Origin: Octopus vulgaris
Lineage: Eukaryota
Direction: 5' to 3'
Assembly: GCA_951406725.2 (NCBI GenBank)
Contig: OX597823.1
Coordinates: 40,176,001 to 40,240,000, forward strand
DNA length: 64,000 nt
Under the pieces are notes generated by a model. The model was given only the letters and a program-made list of their open reading frames with translations. It searched no databases and was not told the DNA's origin. This document shows, piece after piece, positions 2,671-57,000 of the stretch (its first letter is position 1; every line of letters starts with the position of its first letter). Made by a program: the position numbers and the translations under genes.

Positions 2671-3013
2671 TAAAATATCAGCTTTTTGAGTTGTTTGTGG
2701 ACGTGTGTATTTCTGTGTGTATGTGTGTGTGCGTGCGCTCGTGTGTGAGTGTGCGTATGTGTGTGTGTGTAAAAGATAAATAGGTAGTGTTATCACCTTG
2801 ATAACTAACAAGTTTTGCTTAAAACCGCGTATTAAAAACAAGCCTGTCAACACAATATAGTGTTTAAGAAATGGCTGTACATACATACATACATACATGC
2901 GTATATATAATCCATATATTATTTGTGTGTGTATGCGCGTGTATGTGTGTGTGTTTTGTGCCTTTCAACATGTAGACAATGCTGCATAGACTTTAGAAAA
3001 AGATCTTGTGTGT

Positions 3014-3049
<36 letters not shown>

Positions 3050-3092
3050 TTATATATGTGTGTGTGTATATATGTATATATATGGGAATATA

Positions 3093-3490
3093 TAGGAATG
3101 GCTGCATAGTAAGGAGCTTTCTCGCCAACCACATGGTTCCGAGTTCAGTCCCATTGCGTAGCACCTTGGGCAATTGTCTTCTATTATAGCCTCGGGCCGA
3201 CCAAAGCCTTGTGAGTGGACTTGGTAGACGGAAACTGAAAGAAGCCTGTCACACACACACATATGTGTATATATGTATGAGTGTGTTTGTTATTTGTGTC
3301 TGTGTTTGTCCCCACACCGTCGCTTAACAACTGATGTTGGTTTGTTTACGTCCCTGTCAACTAGCGGTTCGGCAACAGTGACCAATAGAATAAGTACTAT
3401 GCTTACAAAGAATAAGTCCTGGGGTAGATTTGTTCGACTAAAGATGGTGCTCCAGCATGGCTGCAGTGAAATTACCGAAACAAGTAAAAG
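3093..3490 (+). mobile_element. SINE copy, same family as 931-1322
   Basis: CCACATGGTTCCGAGTTCAGTCCC...CCTTGGGCAA...GGAAACTGAAAGAAGCC...GGTGCTCCAGCATGG matches the 931 copy. Confidence 0.85.
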
Positions 3491-4083
3491 AATATATATA
3501 TACATATACATCAGTTGAACACCGAGGTCGATGTAATTAAATTAACTCCTCGTCCGAAATTGCTGGCCTCGTACCGAAATTTGAAATCTATAATTTTTCG
3601 AATTTATGAAGGTTATAAGAAATGAATGTCTTATCAATATAGAAAAGTAAATACAATATTTTATATCCCTAAATATATAACTGGATTGATTCACCATTAT
3701 TTTTTGTTTGAAAACATATCCCATATTTTATGATAGTCCCTTCCAACTTTATGATGACATGTTGTATGATAGATATTTAACTATATATGTCATATACGAT
3801 ATGAGTAGTTATGATTATGATTTACGAATTATGATTAAGAGGAAGTACTATTCTTATTTGTATTTTGTTATGATCCAGTTAATATCTAATTAACAAAAAA
3901 AAAGAACGTTATAATTCATGACAGTATAATTATCCTCCAATATTGCAATGAAAACTAAGCAACATTAAACCTTGAAATAAAAGTATGGAGCTGGGTGTTG
4001 CGTGACAAAAATACCATTTTCGCGCACGCAGACATAATTACAATGAAACTGTCAATTATTTGAGCTGTTAGAGCGTTGCGTGA

Positions 4084-4405
4084 AGGAGCGTGGTTTGGTG
4101 GTTAGGTGTATTCGACTAACGATCGTAAGGTTGTGAGTTAGATATCCGGTAGCCAGTCGTGTCTTTGAGCAAGATACTTTATTTCACGTTGCTCCAAGTC
4201 CACTCAGCTGGTAAAAATGCGTAGTACCTGTATTTCAACAGGCCAGCCTTATCCCAATCGGTGTGTCACGCTGAATTTCCTTAAGAACTACGTTACAGGT
4301 ACGAGTGTTTGTGGAGTGCTCAGCCACATACACGTTAATTTATCGAGCAGGCCGTTCCGTTGATCAGTTTAACTGGAAAACTTGTCGTAACTGACGGAGT
4401 TCCTG
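4084..4405 (+). mobile_element. tRNA-derived SINE (third family)
   Basis: tRNA-like head, then GTGTCTTTGAGCAAGATACTTTATTTCACGTTGCTCC..CCACTCAGCTGG. A related partial copy lies at ~17920-18055. Confidence 0.65.
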
Positions 4406-6124
4406 TTTAAGAGCGTCGTATATATTACTTTACAGTAATCATCCAGACTCTCTACGATTTTAGTCAAAATTCTGCCCAGGCCAACCTCGATTTTCATCAT
4501 TTCATGGTCGACATAAAGGCATAAAGTACCAGTTGTATACTGGAGTCTCAACTCTTTCTATTTCTCTCACCTTTTCTTTCTGTCAGTCAGTCTATTTCTC
4601 TTTTGGAAAAAAAAAAAAAAAACGTTGGTTGTAGTCCGACGTGGAGACAGATGGGTTCCATAAAAGGTCTTAATATATCTAATACACTCTCATATATCAC
4701 TTCTTTGAATTCACCAATGAGTTAAGGACCCAAGACAAAAATCAAGGCAATGACAAATGATTACGTGCGAAACTGAATTTCTGTCAGCGTGCAGCAAGTG
4801 TTATAAACGTTACATCCACCAATCTTCGCCTACAATTACTGGTCAGAGACGTGACAGTATAGTCCTCAGCCATCTCTTCCTCAGGGTCCTATTAGAAGCA
4901 ACCGGTACCAAGCATGACCAACAGAGACTATGAATATTATCCGATCATTTCGTTCTTCGTTTACCCTAGGTCTCCTGTCGGTTGGTTCGGCTTAAAGAAT
5001 CTGTCTTGTGATTCTTTTCTGGGACATTCTAATCACATGTCCGCAATACAGGAGCTGTGACCACTCAACGCAGAGAAGTAGCGGCTCGACCTGGAAAAAC
5101 TCTCTGATCCCAGAGCTTCTCACCTTGTCGAGTGGCATTACTCTAGAAACCATTCGGAGGAACCCCAGTCAGCGACTTTTCTTTGCGATCGTACTCTGTC
5201 GGTCCTTACCCAATATTCAGAAACGTCATATCTATAATGAAAATGCGCTATAATTCTTAACGAATTTTAATTTTCATAACTAACCTTAATGACGATTAAT
5301 AATATTAATTTAAAAATCATAAATAGTGAGACGCATTAATACACAGCTTTCATGTTATTACACATAATATTTAATTCTCATCAAGCAAGTTCAGCTGATG
5401 TGATTCTCCACGGAAATTAAACTTAATTATAATATTTCATAAACATCTTTAATGACTTTTATATGTCAAGACTAATTACTGATCGAGTTCAATTTATTAA
5501 CGAAAACTATTCAAAATTCTCATTAGAGAGTTTAATTAATAGTAATTGGTGTTATTTGACTTCTTATGTGAACACAGAGACACAAATTAGTAGCAATGAG
5601 TTCCGTCGTTCCTGGGTACGTTACCAAAATTTAAATGAATGAAATGTCTGTTTGGAATACAGAACATTGTGACATCGAAATAAATATTTAAAGGCATTCA
5701 CCTCAAGCATGTATAATTTCTGTCATTCCACTGGCTTTAGAAATTGGTATTAAAATATCTTGCACATTTACTTAAAGTATGTTCTGTATCTATTTGATAG
5801 GATATAATATTTGTTTAAATTAATTAAACATTAACTTACAATGTATTTTATAGTTATTAGAGATATGTTGTATCTGTACTTAATGTATGTTCTATATCAA
5901 TTTGAAATACTTTTCTAAAGCTATTAGAGATGTGTCCTATGTTTATTAAAATATATATATATATTCTGTATTTAATTAAAGTAGCCTCTATATTTATAAT
6001 TTTATGCAGGGAAATAATCTCAATCAAAACAAACTAAAAATAAAATAGAAGTACTGCTTATATTGTGTTTAATTCTGTAGATGATGATGATGATGATGAT
6101 GATGATGATAATAATATTAACAAC

Positions 6125-20502: not shown

Positions 20503-20545
20503 CACAACGTTTCGGCTGATATACCCTCCAGCCTTCATCAGGTGT
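20503..20545 (-). ncRNA. Minimal type-I hammerhead ribozyme (best canonical example in the window)
   Basis: Minus: CAC-CTGATGA-A-GGCTG(GAGGGTATAT)CAGCC-GAAA-CG-TT-GTG. Intact core, 5-bp stem II, stem I CAC/GTG, palindrome AACGTT. Confidence 0.8.
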
Positions 20546-38855: not shown

Positions 38856-38987
38856 CGATCTCTGTCAAGATCCTTCCAGTAGAATATGACAATTTTTATA
38901 CCAATACCCAAATGTCATATCTATCCTAGCTGATTTTTCCATTCTGAAATTTTGCATGAACTGTCAGGCGAATTTCATATTAATATA

Positions 38988-39213
38988 TTTCTTTATTGCC
39001 CACAAGGGGCTAAACATAGAGGGGACAAACAAGAACAGACAAAGGGATTAAGTCGATTACATCGACCCAGTGCGAAACTGGTACTTTATTTATCGACCCC
39101 GAGAGGATGAAAGGCAAAGTCGACCTCGGCGGAGTTTGAACTCAGAATGTAACGACAGACGAAATACGGCTAAGCATTTCGCCCGGCGCGCTAACGTTTC
39201 TGCCAGCTCGCCA
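38988..39213 (-). mobile_element. Complete monomer of the MetaSINE-like SINE including the long 3' tail
   Basis: Minus: GGCGAGCTGGCAGAAACGTTAGC...TTTAGCCCCTTGTGGGCAATAAAGAAATAT. Confidence 0.85.
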
Positions 39214-40021
39214 ATAGCCTTCCTTAACCATACTGTTTTGTGACAGTATGGTTAACTATGATCACTTTCGTTTTGGCCATGATTTCTACTTTTAGCAATT
39301 CTCTGGCGGGCAGAAAAGACTGGACTAGGGAGAGAAATATTTTATGAAAACCTTTGTTGACTTGTTCTGTTTCTAGGAGTACCACAACAAAGGTACCTGG
39401 GTGGTGTCGCAACTTGGAGTTAGAATGCGAGTATCTGCGGTATTTTACATCCCAAGAGCATTTAATATTCATCATGTAACCAATCTCAAGATCCTCCTCA
39501 GCCAGTTTCTAGAATTGGTACAGATCATAGATCATAATTCGATACAAAAGTCCTCAGGAATATCCTTTAATAATTTAGCGACAGTCTTGAGTCTCATAAT
39601 GAGGTATTTTATAGAAATAATCTACGTGTTATGTTACCAGTTTCATTCTACCATTTGGTTACTGCTGCGATCATCTCTCGGAATAGGCGCTTCTGTACGT
39701 GTATTCAAAGAAGATGACCATTTAAACAATTATCTGAGGAGACAGTATTCATAATACGACTCTGTGAACAGTCTGTCCTCTATGTCGACTTAGCTGACGT
39801 CGATCTCATATCTGTCTGTCTGTCTGTCTGTCTGCCTACCTGTCTGTCTATCTGTCTGTCTGTCTGTCTGTATGTATGTATGTATGTATGTATTTACATA
39901 TGTGAGGTTATGTGTATGTATGGATATGTTAATGTTCGTATGTTTGCATGTGTGCATATGTATGAAAATATGAATGAATATATGTATATGTGTGTACGTG
40001 TTTGTATGTACGAGTATGATG

Positions 40022-40079
<58 letters not shown>

Positions 40080-40649
40080 CGTGCGCCTGTATATATATAT
40101 ATATATATATATGTACATGTAGGTGTACATATGTGTGTGTGTATGTGTGTGTATGTGTGTGTGTGTGTGTGTGTATGTGTGTGTGTGTGTGCGTGTGTAT
40201 GTGCGTATATGTATGTAAAAGCAAGTAAGGTTCAAGACGAAAGATCAGTACAACTGTTAGAACACCCTCTGTTCCTGCTTTTTGTGTTCTGACGGCAAAA
40301 CTTTGACGACAATGGTACCAAACTCTATCGGCCCTGGCATTGTCTTGGACAACACAGGAAGAGCGAAAGAGGAAACTAACATGCATGCGCCAGTGTTTGT
40401 GCTGCAAAAAAGTAAGATTGCCCGGGAAATGAAGCTTAGAGAGAAACTTTCCATGTGTAGAAACCCCTGGGTAGTGCAGACCGAAAGGGACCCCAGTTCC
40501 CCAGGTGTATATAAACATATGTACTTACATACATGCATACATATAAGCATAAATACATACATAAACGTGAATATATACATTTAAGTATATACATACATAA
40601 GTATACATACGCACATACATTATACATAATCACATGCCTACATACATGC

Positions 40650-42745
40650 CCATAACTTTAGAGAGAAGTTGAGAGAAGTTCCTTGGAGAAAACGTAAGTA
40701 AACATTAATGATGCAAAGGTAAAAAAAAATTGAATCACCTGATCCAGAAGTGATAAATTTCTGGAACTCCATAAAATAAAAAAAATATAAAACATTTAGA
40801 ATATGGACTTAAATTCACACCAACTTCAAAAACCTGAAACAACTGATCGTATTAAGCTTTCTGAGGAATTTTATAGAGAATTTCGACTACAGGAATGTTT
40901 CCAAAAGAAGGATTATAAAGAATCATCATCATTTGTGAAAACAAAACAGGATTTAAATCTCCAATGAACAGGAATAAATTCTTCGAGAAATTTATAACGT
41001 GTCTGAAAAGATCAGCGAACCCAATCATTCCAGCAAATCGTATAAAACCAAACATTACAAATGAAAGCAAATGAAAGTATTGAAAAATATACAGAAAAAT
41101 TCCTCTACAGTCATGAAAGAAGCTGACAAAGGATGAGCCATTGTTATAATGCACAAGTTCCATTAGTGAGGAATGGTATTAGAACAATAAAATGATCAAC
41201 ATTAAGAAAAGTTAGAAACCAATGCAGACGAACAAAGAAGAAGCTAAACTAGTAAATTAACGAACAAATTCAAAAATAATTTAACAGAAAAACAGTTGGA
41301 TTGTTTAAATAGTCGAGGCAAAAACAAACAACTTCTATAGAGGACCGAAAATTCATAAATCTGAAGAAATCCTTAGCAGCCTAAAGAACCTCTATCTTAT
41401 GTGAAGATTTCAAAAGTGCCTGAATTTATTATTACGTACAATTGTTGTAGGAACAACATCAAGCACTCAACGATTAAACAATCTACTGATTGAATCCATT
41501 ATGGAAATTGGTTCCAAGTTTCATCAGAGGTGACGGAGAGATTAAAATCATATTCCAAAAAAGAGAAAATATTCAGACGATTCTGGTTACTTCTGAAGTG
41601 GCCAGTCTTTACACAGAGGCTGGCCACTTCAGTAACATTCCGGACAGACAAATATCAATCGAAAATTCAGTCGAGATTCTTAAAGGAAACCATATTAGAA
41701 AGATTAGAGTTGGTGTTAGAAAACAACTTCTTTGTTGTAACAATCAATATTACCTTCAAATACTTTTACAAGACTTGTGGGGATTCTTAGAAGAAAAAAA
41801 TTTCGATTTGGAATTTTTTTTTTATCAGAGTTTCAAAACTCAATTCGAAAGAAAAGTGAAAATGATTTTTCTATGATTCATATTTTGGAAGAGAAATAAG
41901 GAAGATCTTAATAACATTCATTAGACGATCAGATTCACAATGGAAACTTCCGTTTCTGGACATTTGGATAATTAAAGAAAATATGATTATAACAACTGAA
42001 GTCTACAGCAAAGACGGACATACAACAATATTTAAACTTTAAATTTTCTCATCTATCGCATACTAAAAAAAAAATATGCTATTTAACGCGCCCGATTGTT
42101 ATAGGACCAACATCACACATCCAGCTATTAAACAATCTGCTGGACATCATATTGGATCCATTAAAAAATTGGTTTCTAGTTACATCAGCAGTGACATGGA
42201 TATTTTAAACCCTATTCCATATGAGTAAATACAGAGACGATCCTGGTTAGTTTTGAGGTGACCAGCCTCTACGCAAATATTCCGCATGAATTAAGATAAG
42301 AAGTAGTGAAATTCTGGATAGACAAATAGCTATCGATAATTCTGAAGGACTACAACTGATGCTGGAAAACCTTCAAATACTTTTGCAATGCTGGGATTCT
42401 TAGAAGAAAAATTCGTTTTGGAATTATTTATAATCAGAGTTTCAAAACTCAAATTTGAATGAAAAGTGAAAGTGATTCTTCGATGACTCATATTTTGGAA
42501 TACAAATATGGAAGATCTTAATAACTTTCATTAAACGATCAAATTCACAATGGAAGTGAATGAAAGGAACCTTCCGTTTCTTGACATTCTGATAATTTAT
42601 GGAAATATGATTATTAAAGCTAATCTCTACTGCTAAGATAGACACATATGAATATTTAAGCTTTAAATCTTGTCAGTCATTCACTAAAGAAACGGACTAT
42701 TTAATATGGTGAGATGTCTATGTGCAATAATTAACGATTTAACTA

Positions 42746-42832
<87 letters not shown>

Positions 42833-43271
42833 AAGAAAGAACTAAACACTATTCCTCTAGTGATAAAACTATCAGAAAGACTTTATAAATAATGGTATAA
42901 AGGCTTGGCTGTGTGGCTGAGAAGCTCACTTTGCAATCATGTAGATTCGGGTTCACTTGGGCAAGTGTCTTCTACTATAGTCTTGAGCCGACTTAAGCCT
43001 TGTGAGTGGATTTAGTAGACGGAAAACTGAAAGAAGCCTGTCGTCTATATATATGCACATATATTTATGCGTGCGTGTCTGCGTCTATGTTTGTCCCCCA
43101 CCATCGATTGACAACTGATATTTGTGTGTTTATGTCCCCGAAACTTAGTAGTTCGGTAAAGTGACCGATAGAATAAGTAGAAGGCTTACAAAGAATAAGT
43201 CCAACTAAAACTAAAACTATTTAAGGCGGTGCTCCAGCATGGCCACAGTCAAATGACTGAAACGTGTAAAA

Positions 43272-43317
<46 letters not shown>

Positions 43318-44130
43318 GTGTGGGTGTGTGTGTGCATGTCTTTGCGTTTGTGTCACCTGGTCTTTGCGGCACCTGAGCATGGCTGCAGTTCGGTGACTGA
43401 ACCAAGTAAAAGAAAAAAGATAAGAAAAGCCTAACAAATCCCAATACCGCACTAATGAATAAACTTTTACGATGAGGAGGAAATCACAGAAATATTCCAT
43501 TTGTAGTCAACCCCATCCTATAGTGCACAAATCGAAGCATTCCTATTCTATATCAAGCATTAAATCCATGTAAAAGATATTAAAGAACCTATAAATATTG
43601 ATTTCAAATTTTGGTACAAGGCCAGTAATTTCTAAAGAGAAGGTAAGTCGATTACATCGACTTCAGGGCTCAACTGGTACTTGTTTGTCGATTCTAAATG
43701 TGGTGGAAAGCTAAGTCGATCACAGAAGAATTTGAACTCGGAACACAAAGACAGACGCAATGTCGCTAGGCATTTTGCATGGCATGATAATGATTCTGTT
43801 TGCTCGCTACCTTCAAAGAGCCTAACAATTATTAACAGTCAAAGGCAACCGCCAAATCGTAAAATAACAAAGGTAAAATTCATTTACAGCGGAAGAAGTT
43901 ATGCGAGACAAAATTGTGTAAAACCTTCGTTGTGGGACGCGTGATTTTATTGAACAGGGTAAAATCAAAAAGTTCAACAATGGCAAAAGAATTCAAGATT
44001 AAAGAAAATATGAATTACAAAACGAAGCACAGTAAAACCATTGTGATTGACTGCGTTAATTGTCTGCAATATAATGAGAACAAATCGGTGAATCTGGAAT
44101 AAAATTAATGGAACGTGTCAGGGTAAAATT
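40650..44130 (+). pseudogene. Heavily decayed Penelope-like element with a duplicated RT segment, interrupted by SINEs
   Basis: Fragments: ADKG (~41121), NFYRGPKIHKSEE (~41330), ILVTSEVASLYT, LELVLENNFF, PFLDI (~41950); a second pass RPIVIGPTSH..LLDIILDP (~42088), ILVSFEVTSLYANIPHE (~42240), PFLDI (~42575); INSQRQPPN (~43831). Confidence 0.75.
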
Positions 44131-44460
44131 GCCTAATAATTGATTACTAGTCTTTTGCACGTCGTTACTTCTGTACTGAAAGCGACAAAAGAGAGAGAGA
44201 AAGAGAGATGTGTTGTTTAGGAAATTTACCTAGTGACCTATGCGTTAATTCTTCATGCTTTCCTCCCATGCATATTCCATAAAAGCATTACCATGTTAGA
44301 AAAATATTAAGATTTGTTAAAAAACAAACCCGGAAATGAATTTGCATGTGCGTGTATTGTATGCGTGTGCGCATGTGTTTGAGTGCGTGCGTATGTGCAC
44401 GCGTGAGTGCGTGCGTGTCCATATATGAATGTATGACTATATCCGAATTCTTTCACGAGC

Positions 44461-44551
<91 letters not shown>

Positions 44552-44659
44552 GTGTGTCTGTCTATCTGTGTGTGACGAAATCACCTTCACTATGATCCTA
44601 TGAACCGTAAAATTAATACAGAGTTGCTTATTTGTAAAAAAAATATAACATGTGACTTC

Positions 44660-44942
44660 ATTGATCGAGGTTACCGTGGTCTTTTCCGTAGGCTTTTCTT
44701 TCTACGGGTAAACCTCACCTGTCTTCCCCTTTACACTTTATATTGACATTTCTGTTATAACGATCCCTATTGATCGATTTTTCTTTTCTTTTTTTTTCGT
44801 TTATTTTTTCCTTTCCTTCTTCTTTCCCTTTACGATCCCTTTTGATCGAAAACCAAACCCCTTTTTTATTCCCAAAAAGAAAAGCTCTACCTTGTAATTT
44901 GCCCCGTCTGTGTACAGCCCTGTGTGGCTAATAAAGAAACAT
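44660..44942 (+). mobile_element. Probable LINE (L1/Tx1-like) 3' UTR remnant
   Basis: Pyrimidine-rich UTR ending GTCTGTGTACAGCCCTGTGTGGCTAATAAAGAAAC; resembles the MetaSINE-like SINE tail. LINE identity rests on recollection of similar repeats. Confidence 0.45.
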
Positions 44943-45180
44943 ATCTGTGTGTGTGTGTGTGTGTGTGTTTCTGTCAGTCTATATGTATGTACGTACGTAT
45001 GTATGTATGTATGTATGTATACATGTATGTATGTACAGTTATGCTTCAAACCATGCAAATCGGCAGCAGAACTGAAGAGTCACCTGAAAGGTCATGAATA
45101 GAAAGTTAAAAATGTCATTGACAACGAGCAAACCAGAGAGACAGCAATCATTTGTGAAGAAGGAGCAATCACAGTGTATA

Positions 45181-45262
<82 letters not shown>

Positions 45263-45810
45263 TATGTGTGTGTTATGCAGAGACTCATTCGGGTCTGTAT
45301 AAGTTCCGAGTATTTTTGTTCTCCCAGCAATCTCTGTGACAGTATGGTGCTGTAGTCCATTGGTAATCTTCTTGCTTTTGAACAACATCGGTGGTATACC
45401 GAAAGGTATTGTCTATATTTAGATAACTCTAGACTTTCATACAAGAAGAAATAAAGAAAAAAACAGAAAAATCCCACGCATGCTCTTTGGAGAGTAACTT
45501 TTCATATGCAAATCTGTATTCTCACTAAACGTGGGTTTTGAAAGCTTGAGCACAAAAAAATCTCCATCTCTTACATAAGTTCTGTGTCGTTTTTTCAAAA
45601 GTTTTGAAGAAAATATTTAATATCCAAAAGTATATTGTTATAGTTTCGGGAACTTATCTTTCTGTGTGTGTATATATATATATATATATATAGAAAATAG
45701 TAAAAAGTGAAAAAACTACAGAAGGCTTAAATGTTAAAAAATATATATTTGCGTCAATATGTCTGAAGAATATTAAAAAAAATTTTTCTCTTATAATGAC
45801 ATAGTTTTGA

Positions 45811-45847
45811 AGAAAGACCGATTTCGCGTTTAGCTTTTCAAATTTCT
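45811..45847 (-). ncRNA. Hammerhead-like motif with U3-A8 core variant, in a (TA)n-flanked fragment (45693-45861)
   Basis: Minus: AAGAAA-T-TTGAAAA-GC(TAAAC)GC-GAAA-TCGG-TC-TTTCTT. Stem I AAGAAA/TTTCTT with one bulged U, GUC triplet. Confidence 0.55.
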
Positions 45848-45860
45848 TACGACGTTTTGG

Positions 45861-45904
<44 letters not shown>

Positions 45905-46079
45905 ATGATATATATTACACAAACATACACACACGCAGATGCGTTATTTGCTTCCTGATCATAAGGCCTCAGGTTCAGTCCCACTGTGTCATGCCTTCTA
46001 ATATGCCTTCTAATATAGCCCCAGGCCGACCAAAATCTTCTGAATAGATTTGGTAAACGGAAACTGAAAGAAACCTATC

Positions 46080-46120
<41 letters not shown>

Positions 46121-46124
<4 letters not shown>

Positions 46125-47911
46125 GAAATGAAGAAAATGCTGACAAATAATTGAAGTAATTTAAGTAATTTAATTAGGTGAAAGTTCTTTTTACCGGTTG
46201 CGCATTTGTTATGCTTATCAAAATATAAAAGAGAGATTAGAGTCTGTCTCTTATATGTGAAAAAAGAGGCTCCAGAGTTGTTTTGGATTTGCTTGGTTTC
46301 GCGCCTAAAATTTTGATTGGTCATTATGAAGGGGTCACGTGAATGTTTGAATGGAAGTTGGTGTTGGGGTAAGAAAAAAGGCTCCAGAGAAGTTAAAATT
46401 TGGCTAGTGTCACGCCTAAAATTTCTTATTGGCCATAATAAAGAGGTCACGTGAATGTTTAGAATTTTCGAAAATAGTGTTGTTGAAAATTCTTATTGTT
46501 CAGGCTGGTCAGTAGACGTCATGTGGATATTTTAAATAGCTTTTTAGCGCGTAGTTAGGGAGTGTATTTTCCGCTTGACTGGATAAGTAAGTTCGTTTAG
46601 AACAGGGAGAGCTGTATGTATGTATGTGTGTGTGCGCGCGCGCGCGTGTGTGTTTATATGTATGTTGGGGCGCGCGCGCGTGTATATATGTGTGTGTGTG
46701 TGGGTACAATTTTCAATATTTATAGTTCTGCTGGCCTTGTGCCTGTATCGGGAAGCAACGTATTTGTGTGAAGTCACTATTTACAGCCATTTCCAAAAAA
46801 TAGTGTTGGATGTTTTGCACCCGTATTCAATTATGTGTATGTGTGGAACCATATATTTGTGTGTGTCATGGTGTTAATATCTGGGTAAAGGTGTGTGTAG
46901 GGTGTGTGCAGGTGTAAGTGTGTTTGTTGTGGGTTCGTGTTAGGGGCATGTGTTTAGAAGTGGTCTGTATTTATTAATAAGGTGGGATTGCATGGTTATT
47001 CGCTGGGTATGAGTGGCATTGTCTTTAAATTTGTAGAGGGGAAAGATTCTAAAATTGGGATGGAGTTGTGCGGCACAGGTATCAATATGTGCACTAAATT
47101 ATATTTTTCTATATTCCTGTATTTTTATTTGGGATCTGTGGACAGTCATGCGTTGGCGGAGGCTATTTTTTGTTTGGCCTATGTAGTGTTCATTACAGCC
47201 CGAGCAAGTTAAGACATATACTAGGTTTTCTGATGCGCATGTGAAGTTGTGTTTTACTGTGAAACGTTGTCCTTGTTTAAAAAGGAATTCCGGACCTTCT
47301 ATTAGGTTGATGCATATACCACAGTTGGGTCTATTGCATTTGTTTACTGTGGGTTTAGTTGTTGTGGTTGGCAGTACTTTGGCATTTGTTAGGATGGTTT
47401 TCAATGATTTGGGTTGCCTTTTGCTCTTTATGATTTCGTGTGTTAGGAGGATTTGGTTCATTCTATGGTCCTTTTGTAATACAGGAATGTTCTGGAGGAT
47501 GGTGTCAAAAGCTTCATTGTTGAGGGGGTTGTGTGTAGAGATGTATGGTAGAGTATGGGGTTTCGATGTAACAGGTTTAGGGCGTCTAAGTTCCTGCGTG
47601 CTGAGTTTTAGGGCGCGTTGGATCCCATTGTCAATTAGTGACGTGGGGTAATCCCTGCTTGTTAATGTGCCCTTGAGTTCTTGTAGACGTAAGAGACGGG
47701 TGTTTTTATTGGAGACTATAGTGCAAATTCTCTTGGCTAAGTTGTAGGGAATGTTAATTTTAACGTGTCTAGGGTGGCATGAATTGAAAGGGAGGTATTG
47801 CTTGGAGTCTGTGGGCTTGTAGTATATGTCTGTTTCTATTTTTTTGTTGTGAATTTTAATGAGGATGTCGAGGAAGGGAATTTGTTGAGGGCTGTATTCC
47901 AACCCCCCCAC
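46121..47911 (-). mobile_element. Left arm of fold-back Penelope-like element (RT C-terminus, GIY-YIG endonuclease, 3' UTR)
   Basis: ORF 47917-47099: IPFLDILI..TDIYYKPTD..YL.FNSCHP..CNRPNCGIC..FTCASENLVYVLTC..C..HYIGQT..LRQRM..HR. Reverse complement of 48410-50200; 3' end abuts (TA)n. Confidence 0.93.
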
Positions 47912-47928
47912 GTCCAAACTACTACGAA

Positions 47929-49380
47929 ATGAAGGAAGACATTACAGAATTTTGTAGAAAATTGCGACTTAGTGAGGAACTATTCGACCAGCACAATGAG
48001 GATGAGTCACTAGCTAGAAATAAAAGCAACTACACCCCACGAAAAGGTAGAAATAAAATCCTAGACGAATTCTGTGAGCACATTACAAACTTCCCCTACC
48101 AACACTTACACAAACCAAAACCCAAACCAAACCTCAACAAGAAAGAGTGGGAAGAATTAAACAAATTAAAAAATGAAAGATCTATCACCATTAAAGAGGC
48201 CGATAAAGGAAGTGCAGTAGTCTTAATGGAGACAGAATACTATATCAACTTAGCACTCTCCACCTTGGAAAATGGAACATATTACGAAAAGGCTGAACAC
48301 TACAATCAACAGAAAATTATGAGAAACTTAAAAACCCTGATCAACCCCCACAAAGAAGAACTCACTAACAAAGAATTCAACTTCATCACAAATTTCACTA
48401 GTAAAACCAGTGGGGGGGTGGAATACAGCCCTCAACAAATTCCCTTCCTCGACATCCTCATTAAAATTCACAACAAAAAAATAGAAACAGACATATACTA
48501 CAAGCCCACAGACTCCAAGCAATACCTCCCTTTCAATTCATGCCACCCTAGACACGTTAAAATTAACATTCCCTACAACTTAGCCAAGAGAATTTGCACT
48601 ATAGTCTCCAATAAAAACACCCGTCTCTTACGTCTACAAGAACACAAGGGCACATTAACAAGCAGGGATTACCCCACGTCACTAATTGACAATGGGATCC
48701 AACGCGCCCTAAAACTCAGCACGCAGGAACTTAGACGCCCTAAACCTGTTACATCGAAACCCTATACTCTACCATACATCTCTACACACAACCCCCTCAA
48801 CAATGAAGCTTTTGACACCATCCTCCAGAACATTCCTGTATTACAAAAGGACCATAGAATGAACCAAATCCTCCTAACACACGAAATCATAAAGAGCAAA
48901 AGGCAACCCAAATCATTGAAAACCATCCTAACAAATGCCAAAGTACTGCCAACCACAACAACTAAACCCACAGTAAACAAATGCAATAGACCCAACTGTG
49001 GTATATGCATCAACCTAATAGAAGGTCCGGAATTCCTTTTTAAACAAGGACAACGTTTCACAGTAAAACACAACTTCACATGCGCATCAGAAAACCTAGT
49101 ATATGTCTTAACTTGCTCGGGCTGTAATGAACACTACATAGGCCAAACAAAAAATAGCCTCCGCCAACGCATGACTGTCCACAGATCCCAAATAAAAATA
49201 CAGGAATATAGAAAAATATAATTTAGTGCACATATTGATACCTGTGCCGCACAACTCCATCCCAATTTTAGAATCTTTCCCCTCTACAAATTTAAAGACA
49301 ATGCCACTCATACCCAGCGAATAACCATGCAATCCCACCTTATTAATAAATACAGACCACTTCTAAACACATGCCCCTAA
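47929..49380 (+). pseudogene. PLE polyprotein remnant (Neptune-like: Cys-rich linker plus C-terminal GIY-YIG); RT core absent; premature TAA at 49219-49221
   Basis: The pre-RT region (ITIKEADKGSAVV) joins in frame at ~48410 directly to EYS..IPFLDI. The frame continues past the TAA as FSAHIDTC...FRIFPLYKF...RITMQSHLINKYRPLLNTCP* to 49380. Confidence 0.9.
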
Positions 49381-50200
49381 CACGAACCCATAACAAACAC
49401 ACTTACACCTGCACACACCCTACACACACCTTTACCCAGATATTAACACCATGACACACACAAATATATGGTTCCACACATACACATAATTGAATACGGG
49501 TGCAAAACATCCAACACTATTTTTTGGAAATGGCTGTAAATAGTGACTTCACACAAATACGTTGCTTCCCGATACAGGCACAAGGCCAGCAGAACTATAA
49601 ATATTGAAAATTGTACCCACACACACACACATATATACACGCGCGCGCGCCCCAACATACATATAAACACACACGCGCGCGCGCGCGCACACACATACAT
49701 ACATACAGCTCTCCCTGTTCTAAACGAACTTACTTATCCAGTCAAGCGGAAAATACACTCCCTAACTACGCGCTAAAAAGCTATTTAAAATATCCACATG
49801 ACGTCTACTGACCAGCCTGAACAATAAGAATTTTCAACAACACTATTTTCGAAAATTCTAAACATTCACGTGACCTCTTTATTATGGCCAATAAGAAATT
49901 TTAGGCGTGACACTAGCCAAATTTTAACTTCTCTGGAGCCTTTTTTCTTACCCCAACACCAACTTCCATTCAAACATTCACGTGACCCCTTCATAATGAC
50001 CAATCAAAATTTTAGGCGCGAAACCAAGCAAATCCAAAACAACTCTGGAGCCTCTTTTTTTCACATATAAGAGACAGACTCTAATCTCTCTTTTATATTT
50101 TGATAAGCATAACAAATGCGCAACCGGTAAAAAGAACTTTCACCTAATTAAATTACTTAAATTACTTCAATTATTTGTCAGCATTTTCTTCATTTCCTTT
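48410..50200 (+). mobile_element. Right arm of fold-back Penelope-like element
   Basis: Near-identical inverted copy of 46121-47911 (few substitutions seen: QELKG/QEHKG, KPHTL/KPYTL); ends near (TA)n. Confidence 0.93.
50098..50133 (+). ncRNA. Hammerhead-like motif with non-canonical core (U3-A8, GCAA for GAAA) near the PLE 3' end; mirrored at 46188-46223 on the minus strand
   Basis: TT-TTGATAA-GCAT(AACAA)ATGC-GCAA-CCGG-TA-AAAA: stem II GCAT/ATGC, palindrome ACCGGT, GUA triplet, ~70 nt before the element end. Confidence 0.6.
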
Positions 50201-50238
50201 TTTATATATCACCACTCGTGTTCGATATCTCCTTTTTT

Positions 50239-50280
<42 letters not shown>

Positions 50281-50283
<3 letters not shown>

Positions 50284-50525
50284 CGTAACGACAGACGAAA
50301 TACCTATTTCTTTACCACCCACAAGGGGCTAAATACAGAGAAGACAAACAAGGACCGGCAAACGGAATAAATCGATTATATCGACCCAGTGCGTAACTGG
50401 TACTTATTTAATCGATCCCGAAAGGATGAGAGGCAGAGTCGATTTCGGCGGAATTTGAACTCAGAACGTAACGGCAGACGAAAAACCGCTTAGCATTTCG
50501 CACGGCGTGCTAACGTTTCTGCCTG
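50281..50525 (-). mobile_element. MetaSINE-like SINE with tail joined to an internal SINE position
   Basis: GACGAAATAC|CTATTTCTTT junction, as at ~160 and ~347. Confidence 0.8.
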
Positions 50526-50689
50526 CGATAAACACAAGTTAGTTCTAATGTACGTTTCACCATTATGATAACTTTGATGCCTGCATTTAATGTTCCCAGT
50601 GCATTTGGATGCTTAACCAGTATGACTGATCAGGGAACACTTTAATTCATTAATTTACTGAGTACTAATGACATTACTTCTCTGGTTGT

Positions 50690-51830
50690 GAAAGGTTAAG
50701 TCTTTCTAATGTGGATTCGTCAGAGAGTGAATCAATGGAATTCTTCGATAACATAGAGAAGGAGCTGCCAAGAGGAAAAAGGATAATGAATAACAGGAAA
50801 CGTATCAAAAGTTTTGCGGCTGCGGCGGGCGCTTCGAAAGAGGAGATAAAGTTTGAAATGCAGGATTTAATGAAGTAAAAGGACCTGCTAAAAAAGGAGG
50901 GGCACGAGATTGAGATGACCCCCACCTCCTAGTAGAGTTACTCTGAATACGTCGTAGAAAGGAATAAATTCTGAAACGTTTGTAGTCAAAGAGAAAAGGA
51001 TAGATGTGGCAACAAGGGTTCAAATCGAGAAGTGTTTGGGACCCATCTGGTCAGAAATTACGTACCTGGTCAGGGGTAACAAATATGCTCCTGTGAAAGT
51101 GCATTTTCAAATACTCCGTAGCCTCCCTGAAGACGGATAAAGTGATTCTGCTGCCATCATACCTTGGAAGGCGAATTTTTAAGGTAAGGATCGAAAAAAT
51201 CCCACCAGAAAATGGATGTTGCTTGGCTGGCAGCGGCGATAACATTAGGCTTGGAAGAGAGGATAACAATCCTCCAAGCATCAAGAATACCAAAGCAGAA
51301 CTGGCTAAGACAGGGGTTGGAGATGATCATTCAGGCTATCCAGGAGAACATAGAAAGTATTGTGGACACCATTTTGGTGGGTGCAAGAAACTGAGGTTAA
51401 TGGTGGAGGGCAGGAAGCCCCGATGCATCAAGTGTGGCCAGAAAGGCCACATAAAGGCAGAATGCCCTCCGTCTCCCGCAAAAGCACCGGTGGTACCTCC
51501 AGTGGTGAAGGAAACCGCACCTCCACCTCATACGGTGACAGACGCAGAGACGGAGGAGAAATGTGATGAGAAAGAGATAAGGCAACAGAAGAGAACGAAT
51601 GGACCAACGTCTCCAAGAGGAATAGAAGAAAGAGGAGGAATAACCACGCCACGGATACTAGTACCCATCCTACCCTACAGACACCATTCCCAGCAACACC
51701 AGATACTGATCCAGAACCTGCACACACAAATACACTTACAAACACACAGGAGCCTAAAAAAACGGCTTTTGTATTGTTATATGGGGCAAGGAAAACAGCA
51801 CTAGTGAAAAAGGTAGAACTAAAATCAGTC
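50690..51830 (+). mobile_element. Second ORF1/gag-like element with CCHC knuckle, frameshifted, no ORF2 seen
   Basis: ILLPSYLGRRIFKVRIEKIPPE / MDVAWLAAAITLGL...IVDTILVG / LMVEGRKPRCIKCGQKGHIKAECP (51424-51465); same motif order as the 26.6-kb ORF. Confidence 0.7.
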
Positions 51831-52455
51831 AAAAGGGTGAACCTACCGGTCGTGGGTACTTCCTCTTATATGGGTCGAAACGATCGTAGTGAATAATAAT
51901 AAAGTCTCGCGAATTCCATTTACTTTCTCTCTTACATACATACATGTGAAATACGCATACATACATATATACATACACACACACATACATATACACACAC
52001 ATATATGTGCGTATGTGTGTTTGGGAGAAGTAATAGAATTAATAGAATTGAATACATATTAATCAAAATTTAATAGGAGACGCTAAAGAGTGAACACCAC
52101 TTAATATATTCTAAGTATATTGTAATATATATTTTTATTCGTTTTGCATCTAATTCACATTTCATATTACATTATTTTTTATATTCAAACTTACTTTCAT
52201 CTAAACTTCTTGCCATTTACACTTGGTAGTAGTAGTAGTAGTAATAGTGTGTGTGTCTATGTTTGTGTATATATATATATAAACATATACATATACGTAT
52301 ATACACGCATATATGCATATATATATATATATACGTATATATATATACACATATACATAAATATATATATATACATACATACATACACATATACATACAT
52401 ATATATGTATATATGAATATATATATATATATGTATATACATATATATGTATATA

Positions 52456-52487
<32 letters not shown>

Positions 52488-52522
52488 CACACATATATAT
52501 ATATATATATACACACATATAT

Positions 52523-52560
<38 letters not shown>

Positions 52561-52947
52561 GTATATACATACACACACACATATGGGTGAGTGGACAAAT
52601 AAAAAGAAACATTCAAAATATTTGTTTAGAGCTACATGTGTCTAATAGCAAGTTTGAATTTACATTATTTAATTTTTTTTTCGTGAGCGTAGGATGCCTC
52701 CTCCACATGAGATTTTCCGATGGAAAGCGAAGAGAATTTAAAAATGAATTTTGAATGTCTTCTGGGTATTGAGGACTCCATTGGTCAGTCGACTAGTTTT
52801 TGCCATTACAACAACGATAGGTATCGTTAGATTCACTTGTTGCGCAGGGGAGATGTTGCCGTCAGCTTGGCGGCGTTCTGTAGGAATACTAAGATTTAGC
52901 GACACCAATTCTTTACATTGCATAGCACAGGTGATATAAACATTTAC

Positions 52948-53038
<91 letters not shown>

Positions 53039-53136
53039 GTCTATCTATCTATCTATCTATCTACCTACCTACCTGTCTACCTTCCTACCTACCTACCTAC
53101 CTACCTACCTACCTACCTATCTATCTACCTACCTAC

Positions 53137-53174
<38 letters not shown>

Positions 53175-53175
53175 G

Positions 53176-53207
<32 letters not shown>

Positions 53208-53295
53208 CCTACCTACCTACCTACCTACTACCTACCTACCTACCTACCTACCTACCTACCTACCTACCTACCTACCTACCTACCTATCTATCTAC

Positions 53296-53346
<51 letters not shown>

Positions 53347-53403
53347 CCTGTCTATCTATCTGTCTGTTTGTCTGTCTGTCTTTCTATCTGTCTATCTGTC
53401 TGC

Positions 53404-53445
<42 letters not shown>

Positions 53446-55369
53446 GTGTTTGAGTATGTGTCTGCGTGTGTGTATTATATTTTTACTTAGGATTTTGTTA
53501 TTAAATATAAACTTGTATTCATAAATAAATGTCGCAGCTGAGGCAATGAATAACATATACAGCGCAATATGAACATAAACGAGTAGAATCCGATCGTAAT
53601 GTCAAGTTGATAGTCTGAAAACATATTCCTCTATCAAGTAATTTATTATTGTATAAAATAGCTATTTTTTATGAGAAAGAAATCTTATAATTTATTGCAA
53701 AACATATTAAGTGTATATACGACGAAAATAATAGCTAATATATGTAAAAATAAAATGCATATATATTAATATTATTCTGTAAGACAAGTGCATTTTATTT
53801 TAGAAAACAGCGTTCTTTTGTTGAATGTTTTAAAATCTATGATTGTATATTTAAACTAATCTGTTGTTGTTATTTTATATTATTGAAGACAGCTATTTTT
53901 CAACGCGGCGAAGTTCTCTTTAATTTCTTCAACTATCATTTGAAAAGGAAGTTGAGGATTGAAAGGGTTGAAAGAGGCAAAACTAGCAAGCTGAGTATGC
54001 TTTTCTGATGATTTGGATGAGGTAGAGAAATCCGGAACATTTTGTTGGGATTTTCTCTGCATTACCTTTATGTAGACTGCTCCGCTACAGTGGATTCTAT
54101 TTATTTATATACTTATTTACTTATTTTTCTGAATTCTGTTTTTATCTTTTGTTGTAGTATCGTTATTCTTGTTTCTCTTTTGATCGATGCAAAACTTCAC
54201 ATTTTGTGCAATGAATTTCATCTTTTGATGTAGTTCTCAATGCTTTGGCATCAAATATTATTATTATTATTATCATAAAGGCGGCGATCTGGCAGAATCG
54301 TTAGCATGCTGGACGAAATGCTTGGCAGTATTTCGCTAATCATTACGTTCTGAGTTCAAATTCCGTCGAGGTTGACTTTGCCTTTCATCCTTTTGGGAGT
54401 ACTAGGGTCGATGTTATCGACTGTCCCTCTTCCCCCAAATCCAGGCCTTGTGCCTATAGTAGAAAGGATTATTATTATAATCGTTATTATTATTGAGTGA
54501 GAGAGTAGAGCATGCCTTCAAAGTGATACTGGGGTAAAATATATGAAGCCCAGAGTACCCATCGTTACTACCCGTCTGGTAAGGGTACACCAGGCACATG
54601 CAGCACAACCATATGTGCGCGACAAGGTGATCTCATATCAAGATAAATAGCGCATGACCTTGAGGTGGGGGTCCAGTTAGAATTTTCTTCAGGTTGAGTA
54701 GCCCATCCCGCTCAAAAGGTCCCTGAGTATGGATTGTTTAAGGATGTTGAAAGAAACACCCATGATTCGAGAGGTGAATTATTCAAACCCCAAAGAATTC
54801 CTCTCAAAACATGGCTATGCTCTGATGCAATACCAGGCACTGGTTCTTATGGTATCTGATTTTAACTGATTGGAAATGTTTTGTTCTAGTGTAAAAGATA
54901 GGCTACAACAAATATTCTGCTCAACACGATAGATTTGCTTGTCAATATTTTTCAATATGCTATTGTTTCATATGTGTATATATACACACACACGAAATGT
55001 TTACTTTTTTACGTTCCTAATGTATATACTTCAAAAAAGGCTGATTAGCAATTTAAAAAATCTGTACAATCTGTAATAATGATATTTAATAAGTGACTTC
55101 TAAACATTTATTACATATTCGTTTCGCTTACTCGGAATATCGAAATCTATTTTTGCACTTTTTCAAATTGCTTTTCATCCATCGTTAATTCCACAGAAGC
55201 ATGTACCTAAAGCCAAAGATGGCTAGTCCTCAAACCAAACAGTGGATTCTACCTAAAGTATTCAAGGTACAAGCTTTCAAATCACCTTACTTTGAAATTA
55301 TATGGATAATACCGTATTAAATTCTGGCACCTCAACTTAAGTTCCATATTCATCTGAATCTCTCTCTCT

Positions 55370-55437
<68 letters not shown>

Positions 55438-55441
<4 letters not shown>

Positions 55442-57000
55442 AGAGTTTACGAAAAAACACAAAAGACAATGTATTAGTATAACGCTCAGGAATAGAAAAA
55501 GTCTTTTACGTTTCGAGCCTACGCTCTTCTACAGAAAGGGACACAGAAAAAACAAGGACAGAAAAAAATCTATGTAGTGGCTAACGATTTATCATGGCGA
55601 CTAGTGCCGGACAGAAGGGTCAAACACAGGAAAGAAAGTAGGAGAGACAACAAGGTAAAGGTGACCCCCAACACAAAGGTGCGTGTGTGTATAAGAGAGT
55701 ATGTATGTGCGTGTGAAAGAGGGCTGGTGGTCTGGACGTGTGCGTGTATGTATGTGTAGGTGTGAAGATGTGGGGATGGGTGTGTGGGTGGTGTGTTGTG
55801 ATGTGATGTGTAATATTGTATGGTGCAGTGTGGTGTGATGTTGTTGGGAGGTGGGGGAGGCGAGAGTGGGGAAAGCACGAGTGGGGAAAGCACGGTTGGG
55901 TGTGGGTTCGGCTGGGGTTTGGGGTAGAGTTGGGGTTTGTGGGTAGGCAGAGGGTGGGGTATGTGGGGGAGGGGTGTGGGATAGGATGGGGGATGGGAAT
56001 GATAGGGGAGGTGGAGTAGGGATGTGTAGGGGGGGGTTTATGGGGGAGGGGAAGGTGGGTATGTGAGGAGAGAGAGGAGGAGAGAAGAGAGAAGGAGAGT
56101 AAGAGAGAAAAAAGAAAGAGAGGGTGAAAGAGTAGGAGAAAAAAGAGGAGAGAAGAGAGGAGAGAAGAGAGAAAGAGAATAAGAGAGGAGAGAGAAAGAG
56201 AGTAAGAGAGAAGAGAGTAAGAGAGAAGAGAGAAAGAGAGAAGAAAGGAAGAGAGTAAGCGGGAAGAGGGAAGGAGGGGAGAGAAAGAGAGGAGAGATGA
56301 GAGAAAGAGCGTAAGAGAGAAGAGGGAAAGAGAGTAGGGGTGAAGGGAAGTAGCAGTGAAGAGAAGTCGGAGTGAAGAGAAGTAGGAGTCGGGGCAAGAG
56401 AGGAGAGTTGGGTGGGAAGAAGGAGGAGGGAGGAGGGAGAGAGGAGAGAAGGAGAGTGAGGGAGCAGAGAGAAAGAGAGAAAGAGAGTAAAGGAGAAGAG
56501 AGAAAGAGAGTAAAGGAGAAGAGAGAAAGAGAGTAGGGGTGAAAAGATGTAGGAGTGAAGAGAAGTAGGAGTCGGGGAGGAGGTTAGATGAAGAGGGGAG
56601 GAGAGTTGAACCCAAATGGCGTAAAAGAGCGAAGAGAGAAGATTAATCCCTGTTCACGGCGCAAACGGGAGTCCGGATGTCCTCTGTGCAAGGACAATCC
56701 AAACACAGACAGGTGTTGCAAGGAGTGACCGGTGGAGCGGAAATGGCGTGAGACTGAGGTGTCATTGCCGAGGCGGATGTCTCGGAGGTGTTCCGCGAAC
56801 CGGTCAGCCAAGCGGCGTCCCGTTTGTCCGATGTACAGGGAATGGTAGAGAGAGCAGGAGATGCAATAGATGATATTGCTGGAGGTGCAGGTGAAAGAGT
56901 CGATGATGCGATAGGGTCGATGATGGGTGCCGGTGAGGAGGGTGGTGTTGGAGAGGTAAGGGCAAGTCCGGCAGCGTGGGCGGGAGCAGGGGGACGAGCC
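55438..57000 (-). mobile_element. 5'-truncated Penelope-like element: GIY-YIG domain, low-complexity UTR, hammerhead, ending at (TA)n
   Basis: Open frame 57000-56584: CSRPRCRTC..FTCTSSNIIYCISC..LYIGQTGRRLADRFAEH..VSRHF...RLRREQGLIFSL..FN. Confidence 0.88.
55504..55537 (-). ncRNA. Minimal hammerhead-like motif in the 3' region of the PLE above
   Basis: Minus: TTT-CTGTAGA-A-GAGC(GTAG)GCTC-GAAA-CG-TA-AAA. A6 is changed to U; flanks resemble the 9984 motif. Confidence 0.7.

Follow-up and report, generated by a model that had tools for sequence, protein, structure and literature searches.

Hammerhead-like motifs with a U3-A8 core pair in the pseudo-LTRs of two octopus PLE families, one of which has C at position 13

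A scan with relaxed three-stem criteria across the 64-kb stretch of Octopus vulgaris DNA that was analysed (hereafter the window) detected three hammerhead-like motifs in total, two of which belong to a PLE family that we designate A and one to a related family, B. The features of the locus, in window coordinates, are as follows.

45671..45856, minus strand: family B PLE 3' end, 5'-truncated, 186 bp, in (TA)n, 98% identical to ORF-bearing copies
45810..45848, minus strand: family B hammerhead-like motif, UUGAAAA-GC-uaaac-GC-GAAA-UCGG-UC, U3 at 45841
46112-47911 and 48410-50209: inverted duplication bearing both family A motifs, 1.8 kb, 99.6% identity
46112..47901, minus strand: second family A 3' part, inverted and 5'-truncated (the fold-back arm), ending in (TA)n and without tail extension
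46190..46223, minus strand: second family A motif, on the fold-back arm, identical in sequence to that at 50098; U3 46221, C13 46200, A17 46192
47899..48410, plus strand: fragment from further upstream in family A ORF2 (unit positions 1545-2056)
48419..50249, plus strand: 3' part of a family A PLE (unit positions 2761-4471 and 1-121)
49855..50059, plus strand: two direct repeats of 92 bp, 80% identical, in the family A 3' UTR directly upstream of the motif
50098..50131, plus strand: family A hammerhead-like motif, UUGAUAA-GCAU-aacaa-AUGC-GCAA-CCGG-UA; core U3 50100, A8 50105, G12 50120 and C13 50121; stem I of 2 bp, 50098-50099/50130-50131; stem II, 50107-50110/50116-50119; palindrome ACCGGU, 50123-50128; A17 at 50129, with the predicted cut 3' of it

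The 48419..50249 segment contains the RT end, a GIY-YIG endonuclease with a premature stop, the 3' UTR or pseudo-LTR (pLTR) and a 41-bp tail extension; unit positions 2057-2760, most of the RT core, are missing from the window copy. In the family B motif GAAA is intact, stem II has 2 bp, stem I has 6 bp and a single unpaired U precedes U3; AUCGGU (45821), a U.G wobble version of the family's ACCGGU, is private to this copy (1/38 rows). The window's own motif copies are probably inert, because the family A motifs are oppositely oriented in a deleted, stop-containing copy and the family B motif is a lone fragment. Single-strand folds of the window motifs were not more stable than shuffles (z of -0.98 and +0.44), and Rfam covariance models gave no hammerhead match at E up to 10 in the segments searched (40000-56000, 50060-50170 and one family B locus).

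The order in full-length family A elements is pLTR-ORF1-ORF2-pLTR. Each of the two direct repeats contains the motif, at a spacing of 4.47 kb, and in 13 of 16 family A stretches two same-strand motifs were separated by 4,463-4,813 nt. The two ORFs overlap and are intact in several full-length copies. ORF1 (431 aa) has a homologue at family B loci, and ORF2 matches Pfam RVT_1 and GIY-YIG, both above cut-off, with CNRPNCGIC, which has the form of a CX2-5CxxC linker, preceding the GIY-YIG match. The family B motif lies approximately 165 nt downstream of the homologous ORF, in the 3' repeat. In the order of RT, CX4CxxC linker and C-terminal GIY-YIG these elements resemble the Neptune/Nematis-type EN+ PLEs described by Craig et al. 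(2021, PMC8557442), as they do in having partial pLTR tandems, an inverted 5'-truncated copy, a tail of 30-40 bp at one end and (TA)n targets; unlike those single-ORF elements, families A and B add an upstream ORF that overlaps the RT-EN frame.

Thirteen non-majority alleles occurred in both pLTRs of a single copy, where the control gave 1.6; they came from 6 of 11 copies, and 9 were private. A further 25 alleles were confined to one pLTR. Of 17 full-length copies, 13 span the upstream predicted cut, 3 begin ~25-45 nt 3' of it and 1 is masked; none has its 5' end exactly at the cut site, although under a circle model this would not be informative. Numerous fold-back junctions fall in the ~50 nt preceding the motif. 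Contigs assembled from presumed RNA runs cover the repeat, though contigs cannot reveal RNA ends.

Judged by sequence, families A and B, which are related PLEs, each carry a minimal type I hammerhead motif in their pseudo-LTRs. The first core strand of each reads Y3-U4-G5-A6-N7-R8-A9, with U3-A8 as the 3-8 pair; helix II (4 bp in family A, 2 bp in family B) closes with G10.1-C11.1; and U16.1-H17 accompanies a palindromic helix III, ACCGGU-A in family A and ACCGGU-C in family B. GAAA is present in 38/38 family B rows. The preliminary description had placed motifs at several sites in the window, and all are real: genome-wide counts far exceed chance, both for the GCAA pattern of family A (2,097 exact matches versus 46 with a reversed control) and for U3-A8/GAAA motifs (13,506 versus 202). 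Comparison of copies also identified U3-A8 as family consensus and not decay, and searches for CUGANGA would, as had been anticipated, miss the UUGAUAA and UUGAAAA strands. Canonical cores are also abundant in the genome; a pattern of the GAAA-SS-UH type gave 25,881 matches (1,427 in the control), and CUGAUGA/CUGACGA prevail among the first 100 of these that were listed, for which reason we no longer regard U3-A8 as the genome's dominant core.

The proteins of families A and B are 48-63% identical, and U3-A8 is common to 5/5 PLE lineages that could be linked to an ORF, so that the two contexts represent a single inherited state and not independent evidence. Separate origins of U3-A8 in the two families were rejected on a quick tree, constructed without a C3-G8 outgroup or reference PLE proteins, in which the sister PLE lineages all have U3-A8. 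Among 10 hand-picked lineages, stem II formed 29 pairs versus 16.8 in shuffled sets (p 0.0003) and stem I 43 versus 13.4 (0/20,000), which confirms the expectation of covarying stems, and a tandem-repeat lineage has changed U3-A8 to C3-G8. Selection on U3-A8 hammerheads is supported by the genome-wide excess of motifs, the covariation in ten lineages and this switch. The earlier argument, that the same double change in two contexts suggested selection, fails as to the independence of the contexts, the family B fragment being a sister PLE 3' end.

A C3.A8 mismatch subfamily exists beside the C3-G8 switch; by hand count, 0/5 C3.A8 loci and 7/18 C3-G8 loci are in tandem arrangement, a difference that is not significant. 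The genome also contains tandem non-coding repeats of ~360 bp, whose ACCGGU/ACGCGU hammerheads occur with either U3-A8 or C3-G8 and which resemble the metazoan non-LTR retrozymes of Cervera and de la Pena (2020, PMC7229834), whereas the family A and B motifs reside in autonomous, ORF-bearing PLEs and not in short tandem repeats.

The further suggestion of a new non-canonical ribozyme class must be given up, as U3-A8 PLE hammerheads, including those of the Schistosoma mansoni Cercyon elements, had been reported by Cervera and De la Pena (2014, PMC4209133). The octopus motifs share with those hammerheads the type I topology, a position in both pLTRs, G10.1-C11.1, a palindromic helix III, a predicted dimer and U3-A8 itself, and rows of Fig. 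S3 of that report that start UUGAUAA and UUGAAAA match the strands of families A and B. The octopus motifs differ in their 6-nt ACCGGU helix III, in having no additional nucleotide after A9, in the unpaired U before U3 of family B1, and in the GCAA of family A, the text rows of Fig. S3 all having GAAA (one AGAAA). Natural U3-A8 covariation, active in vitro according to earlier work, is also covered by Perreault et al. (2011, PMC3088659), together with insertions beside position 3 and weak stems II and III; section 8 of that paper names A6C, A6a, U13a and U15.1-A16.1, and C13 is absent from that section. The U3-A8 core swap is therefore already published, and C13 is the unusual part.

The preliminary description had left undecided whether GCAA was family-wide or an inactivating mutation of one copy. 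It is family-wide: C13 replaces A13 in ~2,050 family A copies, and 99 of the first 100 listed among the 2,097 GCAA matches are family A with C13, which rules out a private decay mutation. Among the first 100 non-C13 matches listed, family A accounts for just 6 (5 U13, 1 A13). The A13 copy was considered as an ancestor of the family and rejected, since C13 occupies the inverted partner arm and A13 is thus likely a later change. An alternative register, with the C as an insertion, would require C15.1-G16.1 and was rejected by inspection. Outside family A, GCAA gave 62 matches versus 33 in the control, and there was no second GCAA family among the matches listed for a pattern that excluded U7 families. 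On the sequences compared, C13 is fixed solely on the family A branch, and because of this departure from GAAA we file family A as a variant hammerhead. In the literature covered, which was incomplete, no natural C13 hammerhead family is described; A13 is listed among the more tolerant core positions, with 10-100-fold loss (PMC4075628, citing its ref. 9).

The second weak point of family A is stem I. In 13/13 listed family A contexts contiguous stem I is 0-3 bp long; helix I can be drawn as 2 contiguous U-A pairs or as 6 bp with 5 extra nucleotides preceding U3. Folded as a predicted dimer, the window motif pairs ACCGGU between strands and forms stems I and II; U3-U4 can be drawn into stem I. 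The 2-bp UU/AA stem persists despite indels on both sides, and the active D. virilis PLE also has a 2-bp helix I (PMC4209133). Family A subfamilies are ~97% identical, and one subfamily that carries a 193-nt insertion 2 nt past the cut site has reached at least 3 loci. Family C, the nearest sister, is 69% identical in amino acid sequence, and the family A 3' UTR upstream of the motif no longer aligns to it; all other core bases are kept in family A over a branch length of 0.17 aa changes per site. Within family A, informative columns number 0/30 in the motif and 24/308 in the flank, which is not significant (p about 0.09).

Our best explanation, to which we give roughly even chances, is that the family A motif is a weakened dimeric hammerhead, neither a new ribozyme nor a dead one; it is likely weakened because C13 is fixed and stem I is reduced to 2 bp. 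Both motifs would act only as dimers, two tandem motifs pairing via ACCGGU, with cleavage predicted after GUA in family A or GUC in family B. Such cleavage would release unit-length RNA to be circularised or re-read. Priming at (TA)n, 80-121 nt downstream, would start reverse transcription that continues past one unit. The tandem architecture, the dimer fold, the clade-wide stem covariation, the retained core bases and the shared pLTR variants support this explanation, the last being equally explained by template switching. Against it, C13 departs from the consensus of every other family seen, stem I is short and can draw in U3-U4, the insertion subfamily spread and no 5' end lies at the cut. 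The ribozyme implied at the outset overstated the case: cleavage is a prediction, and stem I of family A is poor.

It is possible, though we doubt it, that the motif is a recently dead relic in which C13 and stem I loss abolished cleavage, and that the element moves without it, its pLTRs being regenerated by template switching. The two defects occur together, the 193-nt insertion subfamily nonetheless spread, no copy begins at the cut site, Naiad PLEs are described as multiplying without canonical hammerheads (PMC8557442), and a family this young would have had little time for more decay. With the other core and stem II positions unchanged over the family A branch, however, activity could only have been lost very recently; the motif is also kept in every sister lineage and, a weak point, is invariant over subfamilies with differing flanks.

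We regard as unlikely that the U3-A8/C13 core of family A belongs to a functional natural hammerhead, replacement of G8 having freed an otherwise fixed A13. The minimal hammerhead structure contains a sheared G8-A13 pair, which A8 would abolish. Compensation, in which A8 relaxes the constraint on A13 and the U3-A8/C13 dimer cleaves about like its A13 sisters, is quite improbable: C13 is fixed in one of the youngest families, which has several full-length copies with intact ORFs, yet position 13 should then vary in other U3-A8 families and varies in none, and stem I remains weak. That the motif is kept for a non-catalytic task, such as RNA dimerisation via ACCGGU or an RT handle near the priming sites, is very improbable, for although erosion on the catalytic side has spared the palindrome and stem II, fold-back junctions often lie just upstream of the motif, and metazoan PLE hammerheads have low in vitro activity and their discoverers left other functions open (PMC4209133), a structural role alone would not preserve U4, G5, A6, A9, G12 and A14, and junction clustering is expected from ordinary 5' truncation and locus choice.

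By itself, U3-A8 is ordinary. The C13 family matters as a natural experiment on the role of PLE hammerheads, being young, intact, present in 2,000 copies and altered at an 'invariant' base. If its U3-A8/C13 core works, that form would, with the compensatory C3-G8 switch and the C3.A8 subfamily of the same genome, provide a natural variant set for core epistasis and for the need for cleavage in PLE transposition. Should family A cleave, both the core consensus of hammerheads and the descriptors used to search for them would have to be widened; otherwise, a PLE of its clade can spread and regenerate identical pseudo-LTRs without self-cleavage, which would argue against an obligatory cut-and-circularise step.

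The preliminary description had placed three hammerhead-like motifs with U3-A8 core pairs in the window, and we confirmed all three, two in the fold-back copy of a Penelope-like element (PLE), family A, and one in a (TA)n-flanked fragment (45671..45856) of a sister PLE, family B:

50100, + strand: family A motif, in one arm of an inverted duplication
46221, - strand: family A motif, in the opposite arm
45841, - strand: family B motif, from the window scan

Scanning the window for a relaxed three-stem pattern returned just these three sites. No Rfam hammerhead match was found for them, and the predicted folding of the motif monomers was not more stable than that of shuffles. The arms of the duplication (1.8 kb) are 99.6% identical; the window copy of family A lacks unit positions 2057-2760, and in each arm its endonuclease frame is cut short by a premature stop. 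Its motifs are oppositely oriented, so that a tandem dimer in cis would be impossible.

The assembly that holds the window is that of an animal, 2.8 Gb in size and rich in microsatellites. Elsewhere in the window, a canonical minimal hammerhead, CUGAUGA...GAAACGUU, lies at 20541 (-) and belongs to a very abundant family; an altered copy of another hammerhead family lies at 55534 (-). Genome-wide matches of the GAAA-SS-UH type also include, in many rows, an abundant minimal-hammerhead family that appears to have CUGUUGA (U at position 6) in place of CUGAUGA, with context taken from one locus (L361). At 51097-51804 (+), a 235-codon frame in which Pfam detects a CCHC zinc knuckle is probably a gag-like ORF1 fragment from a different retroelement. 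Dispersed-repeat copies at 50280-50523, 54-575 and 38986-39212 are 86-92% identical, and one directly adjoins the (TA)n of the window PLE.

Fragment B is a PLE end too. A DNA search gave 1,504 candidates, 40 of them scored, and family B reads U3, A8 and GAAA in 38 of 38 motif rows (30 loci, some overlapping), among which AUCGGU replaces the helix III palindrome ACCGGU in the window copy only. Longer family B copies have an RT-thumb/GIY-YIG ORF 48-63% identical to that of family A. A quick protein tree (26 rows, without a C3-G8 outgroup) joined family A to the related lineage C (69% at the amino-acid level, support 98) and then to B, E and H (36-57%), and all five carry U3-A8. The family A and B contexts thus represent one inherited state, and the earlier argument from two separate contexts loses its independence. 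U3-A8 in PLE hammerheads is, in addition, already known: about 1,300 matches to such minimal hammerheads are given for S. mansoni PLEs in Cervera and De la Pena 2014 (PMC4209133), whose Fig. S3 text includes UUGAUAA and UUGAAAA rows, as in families A and B, but has GAAA throughout where family A has GCAA; natural U3-A8 hammerheads also appear in Perreault 2011 (PMC3088659, section 8). The family B motif belongs to this known kind. Subfamily B1 lacks the A that follows GUC in its sisters, leaving an unpaired U before U3 (locus L032 vs L117), and family E (L216) has a similar offset.

That selection acts on U3-A8 motifs, as had been proposed from the 2 contexts, is nevertheless well supported. 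With ACSSGU as helix III, U3-A8/GAAA motifs numbered 13,506 against 202 in the control, and their C3-G8 counterparts 292 against 306. Across ten lineages, chosen by eye from match lists, pairing far exceeded that seen when 3' strands were shuffled between lineages, both in stem II (29 vs 16.8, p 0.0003) and in stem I (43 vs 13.4; 0 of 20,000); the stems covary across these lineages. U3-A8 motifs are outnumbered by canonical minimal hammerheads (GAAA-SS-UH type; 25,881 vs control 1,427), one of which is the motif at 20541 (-).

The suggestion that GCAA (C13) may be family-wide is borne out for family A, which rules out an inactivating mutation private to the window copy. A search with 49960-50200 listed 41 full-length matches at 99-100% identity (40 of 945 candidates scored). 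The exact pattern YTGANRA-N6-18-GCAACCGGTH gave 2,097 matches against 46 for the reversed control, and 99 of the first 100 listed were family A; among the first 100 of 490 non-C13 matches with the same first strand, family A contributed 6 (5 U13, 1 A13). Outside U7 families, GCAA gave 62 matches against 33 in the control, as scattered single copies with no second GCAA family found there. C13 maps on the protein tree to the family A branch, one single B copy excepted. The stretch also occurs in contigs of four runs, each with the label of a different other organism, with no alternative letters listed in 50100-50129, a comparison that shows presence only.

We give about an even chance to the reading that the family A motif is a weakened putative ribozyme. 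Apart from C13 its core is intact, as are its 4-bp stem II and its palindrome, although the 3' UTR upstream of it is no longer alignable to family C; the predicted dimer adopts hammerhead helices. Among 21 copies, informative columns numbered 0/30 in the motif and 24/308 in the flank (about p 0.09, one insertion taken out for alignment). Changes at A13 reduce activity 10-100-fold, milder than most core changes (PMC4075628, from its ref. 9), and D. virilis PLEs also show a 2-bp helix I. A dead motif is the less probable reading. Several observations speak against an active motif: stem I has 0-3 contiguous pairs in 13/13 contexts listed, U3-U4 can be sequestered in a predicted fold, and a subfamily that has spread to at least 3 loci (L070, L340/L355, L343) carries a 193-nt AT-rich insertion 2 nt past the predicted cleavage site. 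This insertion occurs in all 3 motifs of one full-length copy, and the subfamily is also visible in a run labelled organism B. Full compensation of C13, an idea that rests on the G8.A13 pair of the minimal hammerhead structure, is improbable, and a non-catalytic role is more doubtful still.

The family A unit (4,471 nt) encodes a 431-aa ORF1 overlapping a 784-codon RT-GIY-YIG frame; ORF1 is without a Pfam match and has homologues (44-55%) in family B loci (L042, L043). In a full-length copy (L344:3936-7636), the RT-GIY-YIG frame is shifted -1 relative to ORF1, with its first ATG 69 codons in, and the overlap contains U-UUU-UUA in the ORF1 frame, which we take to be of slippery-site form; no hairpin was predicted downstream of it. 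The CX4CxxC linker resembles that described for Neptune/Nematis PLEs (PMC8557442). Partial tandems characterise the full-length copies, with two same-strand motifs 4,463-4,813 nt apart in 13/16 fetched stretches. Insertions terminate in (TA)n, 80 or 121 nt past the predicted cleavage site, and the length of the upstream repeat varies between a few bases and about 1.65 kb. We counted 13 non-majority alleles that occur in the two repeats of the same copy, against 1.6 in mismatched pairs; 9 of these were private, they were seen in 6/11 copies, and 25 alleles were confined to one repeat. Such sharing shows that a single template sequence was copied for longer than one unit, consistent with either a circle or a template switch. 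Of the 17 copies with the upstream tail, none begins exactly at the upstream predicted cleavage site: 13 extend across it, 3 begin 3' of it and 1 is masked. In many family A fold-backs (L062, L063, L079, L089, L164, L165), the inversion junction falls upstream of the motif and no more than about 50 nt away from it.

A tandem, non-coding, retrozyme-like lineage with units of about 360 bp (402 matches; loci L125-L138, L186-L213, L243-L263, L294-L313) has switched from U3-A8 to C3-G8, which also speaks for selection on the motif; the clade includes a small C3.A8 subfamily as well. The first 100 matches, counted by hand, comprised 52 U3-A8, 42 C3-G8, 6 C3.A8 and 0 U3.G8. After masking of positions 3 and 8, we built a tree from 34 units, with no motif type represented by more than 3; every C3 unit was nested within U3-A8 lineages (support 100/99), and C3-G8 monophyly received 74/56. 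C3.A8 is either a surviving intermediate or a back-change.

Dimer cleavage by PLE hammerheads is described in a review (PMC6765202). Literature searches listed no hammerhead account for the animal group of O. vulgaris and no natural C13 hammerhead, though the alignments of Lunse et al. 2017 may contain C13 variants. In the aggregate, the preliminary description stands as to the motifs, GCAA is family-wide in family A, and the 2 contexts reduce to one inherited, previously published U3-A8 state. As judged from sequence, family A is a putative hammerhead variant with fixed C13 and a short stem I, new relative to the known PLE hammerheads.
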